DNA of 64,000 bases, from assembly GCA_964187785.1 (NCBI GenBank), contig OZ076409.1, positions 49,540,001-49,604,000 of the forward strand, written 5' to 3'. Below, in pieces: positions 32,062 to 64,000 of the stretch. The notes under the pieces were generated by a model. It was not told where the DNA came from and did no database searches. It worked only from the letters and a program-made list of their open reading frames with translations. Numbering within the stretch: the first letter of the stretch is position 1; the number at the start of each line of letters is the position of its first letter. The stretch is from Amphiscolops sp. MND2022 (Eukaryota). Both the position numbers and the translations under genes were made by a program.

Positions 32062-32171
32062 TGTGTACGAAGTAGCACTTGGTGGGTCCGTACACGAAAC
32101 GGGCATAAGGTGGGACGTACACACTTTTCCCTTGGTGGGACATACACAAAATCTTTAACTTGGCTATTAAT

Positions 32172-32805
32172 AATACTTATTGACATGCATTGGTGGGACC
32201 TTAACACAAAATCTTTTTGGCGATTTTCAGCTATCAAGAATACTTATTGACATGCATTGGTGGGACCTTAACACAAAATATTTTCAGCGATTTTCAGCTA
32301 TCAAGAATACTTATTGACATGCATTGGTGGGACCTTAACACAAAATCTTTTCAGCGATTTTCAGCTATCAAGAATACTTATTGACATGCATTGGTGGGAC
32401 CTTAACACAAAATCTTTTCAGCGATTTTCAGCTATCAAGAATACTTATTGACATGCATTGGTGGGACCTTAACACAAAATCTTTTCAGCGATTTTCAGCT
32501 ATCAAGAAAACTTATTGACATGCATTGGTGGGACTTAAACACAAAATCTTTTTGGCGATTTTCAGCTATCAAGAATACTTTTTGACATGCATTGGTGGGA
32601 CCTTAACACAAAATCTTTTCAGCGATTTTCAGCTATCAAGAATACTTATTGACATGCATTGGTGGGACCTTAACACAAAATCTTTTCAGCGATTTTCAGC
32701 TATCAAGAATACTTATTGACATGCATTGGTGGGACCTTAACACAAAATCTTTTCAGCGATTTTCAGCTATCAAGAATACTTATTGACATGCATTGGTGGG
32801 ACCTC
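32172..32805 (+). repeat. 67-bp tandem repeat, ~9.5 copies, each containing TTGGTGGGAC
   Basis: Unit AATACTTATTGACATGCATTGGTGGGACCTTAACACAAAATCTTTTCAGCGATTTTCAGCTATCAAG. Confidence 0.95.
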
Positions 32806-33309
32806 AAAACATAATTCTGTTTTCCGAATGTTATTCTTTACGAATGAAACTCTGTCATTGGAGAGAGCAAAGACACAACGAAATTGGCTGGAAATTTATT
32901 GCAGTCATTATATTGACTTTAATTATTAATTGTTCACGCATTTAATATTTTTCAATCCCTGGTGACCAGTCTTTGGGCAATTTTCAAATGGACTCAAGGT
33001 ACTGATAATCATTGGTTTTAGTCAAAGTGACAGATAAAATTTTCTCGGTAACCCCATATTTTTTGTACACCTTCTGAATAATTTTCATATACTTTACTCT
33101 TGACAGTACACAGTTAGCTAGTAACAAGTTGACTGGTAAATTAAAAATCCAAGTCATTGCAAATCTTTTATTCAGCCCAAACAACGTTGTTACAACTCAA
33201 GTCAAGTATCGTAAAACCTGGATTTGTTTGAAAAGGTAAGTTTCATACTCGAGTGAAAGTTCATATGACTTTATCCTTCAATTATTGTTATCCTGTCACT
33301 GATAACTGA

Positions 33310-60966: not shown

Positions 60967-61038
60967 TTCGTGACACCCTACCATATGGTCCAAGGTAATT
61001 TAAAATTTGAAACCAAAATATGTTCTTTTCTGTTACTT

Positions 61039-61850
61039 CCCCCATAGTAAGCGCAAAAATTTTAATTCAATTTTTAAAGAGATGCGGTTACTAGATATAT
61101 ACCTACCTCATGAACCTCCATTACCTATAAAACTGGACCCTATCCGAACGCAGCAGCAAAACAACATTTTGTGGTAGTTATAATCAGATCCAGAAAAGAA
61201 ATTATAAAGAAACGCAATGTGGTTGAGCATGAAAAGGTGTTATATTGACCACGAAAAGCACGCCTATTTTGATTCTCAAGCTAGCTTGTTGCATAGCTGG
61301 AGAATTGAAGTTCATTGAACGACGGAAAGAAGCGCAATGAGATTGAGCATACGTGCAACGGGTCTGCCAAGTTGCCTTTGTTTATTTAATTTACATGTAC
61401 ATGTTGCTCCTAAAACTATAGCTTACATGTACAAGGTAATACAGTCCTGTGATAAAAGAATGGAACCACAAATTGGTAATAATATTTGGAACACCTAATT
61501 TTTCTGCCCATATCTCTGAAACTATTGATATTCAAGAAAAATGTCTCAAATAAAAGTTTCTCAAAATTTAACCTAGTTTATATTTGTTTTTTTGAAACTT
61601 CTATGGCAAATATTGGGGGAAACTAGCTCCCAATACCTCTCTATGTAAAAGTTGGTTTGTCAACCAAGTTTTGAACCTTTTCTGTTTATTCCCTACCAGT
61701 TAAGCGGACAAATGAAATTTTGATTGAATTAATAGTAACAAACAATCAAATTGCAGTATTTTATAACTCTAACTGCAACTGAAACTCATCGCTGATAGTG
61801 GTGGGGAATTAAAGTTTCCGCGCTTACTGTGCGGGGGGGGGAAGGGGGGT
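61039..61850. mobile_element. Second copy of the TIR element family seen at 44187-45940
   Basis: CCCCCATAGTAAGCGC left end; TTGCAGTATTTTATAACTCTAACTGCAACTGAAACTCATC...CTTACTGTGCGGGG right end. Confidence 0.6.
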
Positions 61851-64000
61851 ATGAACAAAAAAGATCCGAAGTTTTTAATTTTTGCCAAACAGTTTTGATT
61901 AGTTTTTGTTTATCTACCGGTTATTAGACGAGTGGAAACTAGACAAAAATCCAAGAAACTTTTGTTTTTAACATATTTCGGAAAATTCGACAGTTTTTGA
62001 GAAATTTGCAATCTCATTTGGTGTTCCCCCCACAACACGAAAGCACTTTTTGTTCTCTAATAAAACAATTTCACTAATAAGACAAAATTATCGATAATCA
62101 ATAAAAACGGCACGAACGGAGCTAAATAGTCGCTCAGGCAGGTTGGATGTTGACTTAATCCTTGGGCTAAAATAAATAATTTTTTTGTATTTATTGAAAA
62201 TTATGTATCAATAAACTATTTATTTTGCACCCCTGGGTACAGTTAGTTCTAAAATATCGCAACTCCTTTGCTTAAAATTTCTTAGAATTTTATCTAGTTT
62301 ACAAAAATGTTTTGGAATTTAAAAAGAGTATTTCATTTCAAAAAAGAACTAATTCCGTTTCTATCTTATACAAAAATCTCCCAAAAGCTATTCAAGTGAA
62401 AGTTTCTCAATTTTTCAATAAGAGTTGAGGCGTTGAGGCAACTAGCGTTGGTGGGACATAGACACCTTTTTACTAGGCTTTGGTGGGACATGCATTAGGT
62501 GGGACATAAAAGGTTCGCCATATGAATGAGTTAAAGTAAACAAATAAGAATTAAAAGCCGAATGGTTAGAGCAATAGATTCGGAGTCTGATGAAGAAGCT
62601 GAAAGTATCTATCGATGTCTTGAATTCTATTTCTGTAGCTTGTTAACCCTAACTGGACCAAGAAAATTCCGGATCCACCCAAAACTCTGGTGCTAAAATA
62701 TTGAGGCCTTTTTGAAATGATCTAGAACAAAATATTTTTGCAGTTTTGCGGGAGGTATAATACTCGGTCACTTGGATTTGTACGTAAACTCTAATATGCT
62801 ACGGCAACTTAATTCCAATTCGTTCAATCATATTTTGTATATCACTGTAGTTCAAATGTGATAGTATCACAAATATTTCTCAAGTTGAACAAAGCAGACT
62901 TAGTGGGACATAGACCGCCTTTTTACAAAGCCTTGGTGGGATGGCCACTTCTTTTGAAAAAAAATATAGGGCCATTGCTTAAAGAGGTGAGCCTTCTCGA
63001 TTCCAGTATGAATTTTTTTATGTAAGAAAAAGACGCTTCTTGTAAAAAGTCGGCGCCAAAAAAGGCGCATAGTGCTGAAAAAACCCTAAGGGCGGACACT
63101 TTAGTCACCCCTCTACTTCTGGAAGCATAAGAAAACTTTGTGGTTTAGTGCCAGAGATCGACAAACCTTTGCAAAACCATGGGACCCGAATAATCGAGTA
63201 CGAAATGACAGCCATGATAATTCGAGCATTGTTTCGATCAATTTGTTTTGGATATTTCCGTCATTTTCTCCCAAAGCCATTGTCTATCAAATTGCAACTG
63301 TTAAATGAACGTAAAAACCTATAGGGTTGTCTTTACAGCTCTTTTGACATTAGCAGCAAACAAGGCTACTAAATTTATCGCTATGTACCAAACTTTATCA
63401 GTTGAAGACAGGAATTGGAAAATATCAATTGCAATTTAATTGATATTCAAAAATGGCACAAAAAATTAATTGCACTTTTCGAAAAACTCCAATTCAATTG
63501 ATCAATTATTTGGCAATTAATTTCAACGAAAAACATTTAAAATTTCATTCATACTATCACAATCAAAAATGATGTTCGGAATAAGCTTTTTACGAAATTT
63601 GCAACAAATTAGCGCCTGGAATTACGTTAATATTTGCCAAGTATGCACTCAATTCATTTAGCTATGTTTGGCTATACAAATATGCCCGAGAAATAGGCTA
63701 AGAGAATTGCAATGTATTGGTTTTCATTGCCTACTTTCCAATCAATTCTTTGACGTCTTAAAATTACCCAATAAAAATATTTTCATTGAAAAATTGCAAT
63801 TTATTGTTCATCAATCAAAATTTTCCAATTCCTGGTTAAAGATTCTTTTCAAATTCTTTTTACCTGGGGGGGTGGAATAAATGACATGGTCTTAAAGTTG
63901 TTCACTTGATAAAAATGATTACGTACCAAACAACATACAAGGTTACCGAAAAAATCATTTCAATGAAAATAACTGCAATCAAGCAATAACAATAATTTAT

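Follow-up and report, generated by a model that had tools for sequence, protein, structure and literature searches.

Internal GTGGGAC modules in a giant tyrosine recombinase transposon are fragments of its terminal repeat

CryptonV elements (Repbase; Kapitonov and Jurka 2012) are listed in the accessible text of PMC4455052 and target microsatellites according to the relevant part of PMC8869645. Cryptons of the A, F, I and S groups are YR-only DNA transposons with a proposed circular intermediate, and the consulted sections of PMC3212892 describe them as lacking TIRs and carrying 4–6-bp direct repeats. The available text of PMC13565253 states that a eukaryotic Crypton-type mechanism has had no experimental demonstration. 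In the excerpts of the literature on Starships, these are giant cargo-bearing YR transposons of fungi whose recombinase gene lies near one end. Among plant DDE elements, VANDAL elements and their VANC proteins use a short element-specific motif that occupies non-coding clusters and tandem repeats (PMC5735166, in part), and the terminal binding motifs of the Spm TnpA and AtMu1 transposases double as regulatory sites (bioRxiv 10.64898/2026.08.24.746577, in part); in the accessible portions of these reports, binding and demethylation are demonstrated for VANC, TnpA and AtMu1. Further literature cited for comparison, likewise in excerpt, comprises PMC10871703 and PMC13465315.

The window, which is the whole 64,000-nucleotide stretch of DNA analyzed here, contains the left part of an element that shares features with each of these systems. 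Like CryptonV, it is an animal YR DNA transposon which inserts into microsatellite-like (CA) runs, and no reverse transcriptase was found among the ORFs of at least 130 aa in its 44–83 kb part. Unlike CryptonV as given in the accessible published descriptions, which were the basis of comparison rather than the Repbase entries, it measures 34–68 kb and has a SET exon, a JmjC gene and internal end relics. By analogy, the element would work like a CryptonV-type YR transposon at a Starship-like size, and it is termed CryptonV-like. Membership in Crypton A/F/I/S was rejected on their defining end structure because both ends of the window element carry a 10-bp inverted tip, and it shows asymmetric arrays, no clear duplication and no fixed direct repeat, with only an ambiguous CA overlap. 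The window element resembles Starships in being a giant cargo-bearing YR transposon whose recombinase gene is close to one end. Unlike the cargo of the fungal Starships as excerpted, that of the window element is mostly non-coding with nested repeats, and a Starship captain YR was rejected since neither the window YR nor its homologs matched DUF3435 at E ≤ 0.1. The motif of the window element forms element-specific clusters in non-coding regions and tandem repeats, as in the VANC/TnpA type, but the element encodes a YR, the motif comes from stranded ends and its function is putative. In the open literature (outside subscription journals, Repbase Reports and supplements), no account of giant CryptonV-like elements that bear SET/JmjC, or of ends copied internally, was found.

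Extent, ends and genes of the element

The window element is a giant tyrosine recombinase (YR) DNA transposon. It spans 50.8 kb from position 32062 to the window-equivalent position 82903 (G000:C1:49622903), ∼19 kb past the window, and is 99% identical to and collinear end to end with another copy, copy A. The genome contains about 200 copies, with 194 exact left ends. Fifteen full copies, picked for structural variety, measure 34.3–68.0 kb and have both ends in common, and all 15 combine these fixed ends with differing flanks. A genome search with the YR exon yielded 146 scored matches among 662 candidates, all except two at 89–100% identity, and a search for a second YR family using a distant homolog returned only the same family.

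The right terminus, read inward, comprises the tip YGTGTACGAA and, behind it, four GTGGGAC cores in direct orientation at spacings of 34, 16 and 14 bases. The tip recurs at the left terminus, along with similar cores. The last base of the right end is G in eight and A in seven of the 15 copies, and this difference is unrelated to subfamily. Derivatives of 1.1 and 4 kb keep only the two ends. Insertion occurs into CA runs without clear duplication. The left flanks are CA-rich in 15/15 copies, ranging from short CACA words to long runs, and the true ends have CA/TG flanks that are unique to each copy. A host-repeat paralog without the element (L131) has a short CA run at the insertion site. An exact right–left junction, either circular or tandem, was not found in the assembly search.

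The SET-YR gene is located on the minus strand and encodes, in exon order, the SET domain, a repetitive linker, the zinc-finger/core-binding region, the catalytic domain and a short helical tail, with the exon joins placed at splice sites read from the sequence. The JmjC gene lies upstream of the SET-YR gene, and SET, YR and JmjC occur together in 13 of the 15 copies. An in-frame stop in the SET exon is confined to the window copy among 12 copies compared. The window YR is 31% identical to the homolog P0003; another homolog, P0004, matches Pfam Phage_integrase (E 6.5e-4), and the best PDB matches of a homolog's predicted structure are XerH, XerA and Cre, which are weak (E of at least 0.03). 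The C-terminal domain had been labeled Myb-like in the first-pass annotation; it has no Pfam match, an Atlas search gave unnamed clusters only, and the label was not confirmed. In the 44–83 kb part of the window copy, no ORF of at least 130 aa displays reverse transcriptase or viral structural features; the Pfam scan for this gene content covered 11 ORFs, and short exons fall outside the annotation.

Table 1. Features of the window element (window coordinates)
Position	Strand	Feature	Basis or remark
32062..64000	.	Left 32 kb of 50.8-kb YR DNA transposon, running on to G000:C1:49622903	Copy A, 99% identical; ends in 15 copies
32062..32145	+	Left terminus: tip TGTGTACGAA and three direct GTGGGWC cores, adjoining a (CA)16 run	Shared ends; empty paralog L131
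32163..32815	+	Subterminal 67-bp tandem array, one TTGGTGGGAC per unit	Unit count differs among copies
33313..33735 (approximate bounds)	-	SET-YR last exon, small helical C-terminal domain	33% identity to C-terminus of homolog P0001, E 2e-8
34603..35386	-	YR catalytic exon	R..K..KxxR..H..Y pattern read from sequence
35520..35698	+	Stranded right-end fragment, 181 bp, 76% to right terminus	Inside inferred SET-YR intron 35387–35772
35773..37250 (upper bound approximate)	-	Exon with zinc-finger-like Cys/His motifs and helical core-binding region	24% to P0003 residues 169–461, E 9e-16
39783..40032	+	Two end-derived modules	Inside inferred SET-YR intron 39635–40072
40073..40466	-	SET-domain exon	Pfam SET E 7e-7
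41426..43440	-	C2H2-JmjC gene, two exons	Pfam JmjC E 1.4e-4; 13/15 copies
43626..44042	+	Three end-derived modules	Directly upstream of JmjC gene
48291..48362	+	End fragment, tip intact (GTTTACG allele)	In other subfamilies 26 bp from inverted right end
48400..48618	-	Small C2H2-like exon	Weak zf-C2H2 E 0.015; 14/15 copies
51593..52167	-	233-bp tandem repeat, degenerate inverted doublet in each unit	
58119..58380	.	Back-to-back end-fragment pair (minus 58119–58241, plus 58295–58380)	Plus member is current end allele
59341..59350	+	Single core, homolog of right subterminal array	
62437..62957	+	Two end-derived modules (62437–62521 and 62891–62957)	

Distribution and origin of the GTGGGAC modules

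In the window, TTGGTGGGAC has 24 matches, all at or beyond position 32132, compared with a mean of 0.035 and a maximum of 1 in 200 dinucleotide shuffles of 32062–64000. Eleven matches lie in the left end and 67-bp array, and 13 are dispersed beyond 32830. The left-end and array matches are absent from the site list of the first-pass annotation, whereas every position that it listed as a module carries the motif. The doublets at 35528–35572, 43808–43853 and 48308–48352 and the triplet at 62448–62505 are exact, and two of the six listed doublets, 39798–39843 (GGTGGTAC) and 62898–62941 (GGTGGGAT), are one base off in the second half. The site at 44030 reads TTGGAGGGAC, the 59340–59455 segment has one exact core with others degenerate, and inverted copies are present at 51689, 51922, 52153, 58173 and 58222. 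The first-pass annotation noticed no motif in the first 32 kb, which holds for TTGGTGGGAC; four plain GTGGGAC 7-mers occur there, three of which belong to an unrelated inverted repeat at 15.6–16.1 kb. Consistent with the non-coding placement that had been proposed, none of the 60 GTGGGAC occurrences in the full element falls within the 6.9 kb of delimited exons. The motif had also been thought to mark the extent of the element; it is indeed restricted to the YR element, but the element ends at window-equivalent 82903, not at 62945.

Genome-wide, the strict doublet occurs 779 times, compared with 0 for the reversed control, and is clustered at element copies; the 10-mer counts are 8766 versus 1426. 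Among the matches listed, 43 of 51 doublets on contig C1 and 32 of 48 on contig C2 lie no more than 70 kb from a YR or left end on the list, in neighborhoods that cover 1–2% of these contigs; the doublets are co-localized with YR loci. Ten clusters remain, of which all seven fetched are truncated or divergent copies, one being a solo right end, and the other three carry exact right tips. The GTGGGAC density is 1.07/kb inside the 15 copies and 0.10/kb in their flanks. An independent short repeat unrelated to YR loci is excluded by the clustering of the doublets at copies and by the identity of the orphans as element copies.

The GTGGGAC doublet corresponds to the element's right terminal repeat, and the internal modules are fragments of an end, each anchored at the tip. 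A 700-base right-end profile found 206 internal matches in the 15 copies, which are not independent and reduce to 36 orthologous groups. The matches begin within model positions 1–29 in 181 cases and end at variable depth, giving fragments of up to 181 bp. The same profile finds nothing above 3.3 bits in the first 32 kb of the window. For 26 of the 36 groups, the score is higher against an older true-end allele (L290) than against the window's end, although some margins are small. Within the elements of one subfamily lie intact right tips together with an entire left end in inverted orientation, array included (480 bp, 89%). Self-nesting happens, since at L292 an end is inserted at an ACACA word within the subterminal array of another copy. 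The flanks of internal tips are shared between copies, unlike those of true ends; for the TGAGGAAACCAGACTTA module type, flanks were compared among the fetched copies. Right-end fragments far outnumber left-end fragments, an excess not accounted for by simple nesting. In related loci, the region from the zinc fingers to the YR is uninterrupted (in L149, residues 164–731 lie within 1733 contiguous bases), and the module-bearing intron was therefore likely gained in the window lineage. The motif has an ordinary origin in a transposon end. As the module corresponds to the right terminus itself, the recombinase is the simplest candidate binder, and the internal copies represent stranded ends rather than an independently evolved tag.

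Among 80 related YR loci from metagenome contigs, 15 contain at least five GGACAYACA words (276 in all versus 9 for the reversed word), arranged in a number of irregular arrays that flank the YR gene on either side. The eight array-bearing loci in the tree all belong to one 100/100 clade of 14, and other clades have other enriched words. Shared ancestry of the motif with these relatives is only suggested and may be convergence, since the window YR forms a long, unplaced branch.

Conservation of internal cores and competing explanations

Substitutions were compared in orthologous internal modules, which were gathered by their flanks alone, with gap-adjacent columns dropped. Substitutions shared by at least two copies affect 10/469 core columns (0.021), 43/984 spacer columns (0.044) and 362/8103 flank columns (0.045), while the singleton rates are equal (0.062, 0.057 and 0.054, respectively). 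The bootstrap ratio for shared substitutions in cores is 0.47 (interval 0.12–0.87). The deficit, 10 events compared with about 21 expected, is confined to G/C positions, three of the 25 groups contribute most events, and unfiltered columns give the same pattern. Such a pattern would arise if selection preserved the cores in active lineages while dead copies decayed freely, as the few events suggest. Gene conversion from the terminus is an unlikely cause because the spacers change at the flank rate. The slower change of internal cores relative to their surroundings makes it likely that they still bind the element's recombinase, and binding by an element-encoded protein, as anticipated in the first-pass annotation, fits weak purifying selection of this kind.

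Two intact internal tips do not act as alternative ends. For each tip, the best 30 of 40 matching copies were inspected, and one flank is kept in 30/30 and 30/30 copies, so that none of the 60 best-matching copies uses an internal tip. Homology breakpoints occur near modules in 8 of 142 cases versus 14.7 expected, and accretion at old ends is therefore not visible as today's block boundaries. Against the stranded-end explanation stand this lack of breakpoints at modules, the right-end excess, the missing right–left junction, the weak Xer/Cre fold match and a related locus (C1738) whose YR is 71% identical and which has only two cores in 30 kb and no motif of its own.

A less likely explanation is that internal cores are kept mainly as a VANC/TnpA-like chromatin self-tag that would recruit the SET-fused YR and JmjC proteins and counter silencing. 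The SET exon in the YR gene, the prevalence of the JmjC gene, the selection on internal cores and the several arrays per locus in relatives are consistent with such a tag, as are the non-coding location of the cores and their amplification in 67- and 233-bp tandem units, which resemble VANC motifs as described in the accessible part of PMC5735166. However, the terminal origin accounts for the presence of modules without any tag, and tblastn with the window SET and JmjC exons gave no match in the 80 related loci, which are distant and lie on short contigs. Moreover, the CpG ratio is near 0.9, which suggests little DNA methylation to counter. The tag is compatible with the stranded-end explanation, as its downstream function.

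Similarly doubtful is a reading of the internal modules as functionless relics that decay neutrally and owe their core conservation to a past as true ends. Many cores are already mutated, the ortholog of the module at 48.3 kb is decayed in one subfamily, an old copy (c4_34) has under half the density, and intact tips are unused in the 60 copies inspected. However, the substitutions counted among orthologous internal sites date from after stranding, and cores show half as many of them while spacers show no such reduction; moreover, a back-to-back junction persists across subfamilies that are about 20% divergent.

The cores are improbable as host-factor sites acting as promoter or enhancer elements. 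Presumably, GTGGGAC cores resemble a G-rich zinc-finger or CSL-type site; modules are found upstream of the JmjC gene and in introns, and only G/C positions are constrained. A host factor does not fit the fixed spacing at both termini or the motif arrays that track YR clades in relatives.

It is very improbable, and largely refuted, that the modules are live recombination sites flanking exchangeable cassettes (of integron or shufflon type) or nested MITEs: copies are block mosaics with inward- and back-to-back-facing pairs and one module-bearing segment inverted between copies, but modules show no enrichment of breakpoints, a single flank is retained at the internal tips inspected, paralogy runs past the tips and no stand-alone sub-element exists among the orphan loci.

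Proposed mechanism and implications

In lambda Int and Tn916, asymmetric direct-repeat arrays of arm-type sites lie behind a short inverted core; these sites are prokaryotic and are not known to be scattered through the element. The window element similarly has asymmetric direct-repeat arrays behind a short inverted tip but is eukaryotic, with cores scattered throughout. From YR biology, the GTGGGAC repeats would serve the YR protein as arm-type sites, with crossover taking place in the TGTGTACG/CGTACAC tip. As in the Crypton-type YR biology with a circular intermediate proposed in the consulted part of PMC3212892, the element may excise as a circle and integrate at CA runs, CA-like words within the element itself among them. 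Nested insertion with later deletion, together with capture of a more distal end, would leave old ends inside an enlarged element, and later segmental and tandem duplication would multiply the stranded fragments. Fragments without the inner subterminal array presumably cannot recombine, while their cores would be kept under weak selection. The bound recombinase may aid active lineages by bringing ends 50 kb apart into synapsis, by regulating its own gene or by delivering the SET domain fused to it. The third of these roles would amount to the self-tag proposed in the first-pass annotation and would parallel VANC (PMC5735166, in part) and TnpA/AtMu1 (bioRxiv 10.64898/2026.08.24.746577, in part). 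The alternation between G and A in the final base of the right end may reflect a mismatched overlap, like a coupling-sequence heteroduplex. Overall, the doublet is probably the right terminal repeat of a giant YR transposon whose internal modules are stranded ends likely still bound by the recombinase. By analogy, the stranded ends could have become a distributed code for self-recognition, with the SET-fused recombinase and JmjC protein binding to GTGGGAC clusters throughout the 50 kb and altering histone marks so that the element stays active; this would be an animal recombinase-based counterpart of VANC/TnpA anti-silencing, a scenario that is conceivable but rather unlikely.

The ends, target and probable binding motif are now defined for a recently active 34–68-kb YR transposon in an animal-type genome, which makes the Crypton-type mechanism testable with short DNA probes and natural 1–4-kb mini-elements. 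The stranded ends preserve a record of growth in an element of this kind. Should the internal cores serve to recruit the SET/JmjC proteins, the element could offer a possible large-cargo, CA-targeted integration tool and would represent sequence-specific anti-silencing by an animal transposon.

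The SET-YR gene

The gene for the element's tyrosine recombinase (YR) is interrupted by a predicted intron about half of which is a fragment of the element's right end. In relatives the region that it splits is contiguous, which suggests that the intron was gained through self-insertion of the element. The SET exon of the window copy carries an in-frame stop (40353–40355) that is found in none of the 11 other copies compared. The linker contains a coding tandem repeat whose unit number differs among copies.

Features of the window and of element derivatives
Feature	Position	Remark
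Intron in YR gene	window 35387–35772	about half right-end fragment
114-bp coding tandem repeat	window 37753–39197	SET-YR linker
38-bp tandem repeat family	window 46261–47152	two further occurrences in element's right part
Long near-perfect palindrome	window 55939–56667	nested in element, within 53.1–57.9 kb block
Broken Gypsy-type retroelement ORFs	window 519–5821	no relation to YR-element finding
MITE-like inverted arrays of TGGGACGAAATCTGT	window 15595–16130	unrelated to element
880-aa open frame	window 17356–19998	outside element; no Pfam match
Non-autonomous derivative, 1.1 kb	L129:5184–6309	both ends present; in CA/TG run
Non-autonomous derivative, 4 kb	L124:2293–6330	both ends present; in CA/TG run

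Right tips and rearranged blocks

Right tips are paired back-to-back, with ∼26 bp between them, at L283, L285, L288 and L282 and in copy c5_34 (G000:C5:34090650–34090790), and this pair is kept across subfamilies that are ∼20% divergent. Copy c4_34 and L125/L128 have a fusion of two tips, which forms a near-palindrome similar to the core site of a recombinase. A module-bearing segment lies in opposite orientations between subfamilies (copy B, element 53.1–53.8 kb, versus c5_34, 43.2–44.0 kb). The palindrome-containing block (window 53.1–57.9 kb) starts with a (CTA)34 run and is missing from copy B.

Insertion sites, other clades and derivatives

The CA and GA runs flanking the element (window 32030–32061 and G000:C1:49622904 onward) are far longer than those in the empty paralogous site L131, and microsatellites may expand where the element inserts. 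Three GTGGGAC matches outside the element come from the TGGGACGAAATCTGT arrays. YR relatives from other clades (L177, L185, L206, L173, L215 and L149) are enriched in different words (CTGCAGTCGAC, CCAGGCGAAG, GCCGTCCAC, CTGGAGAC and ACCCCAATC), which are possibly clade-specific binding motifs. The two natural non-autonomous derivatives provide assay substrates that are already to hand.
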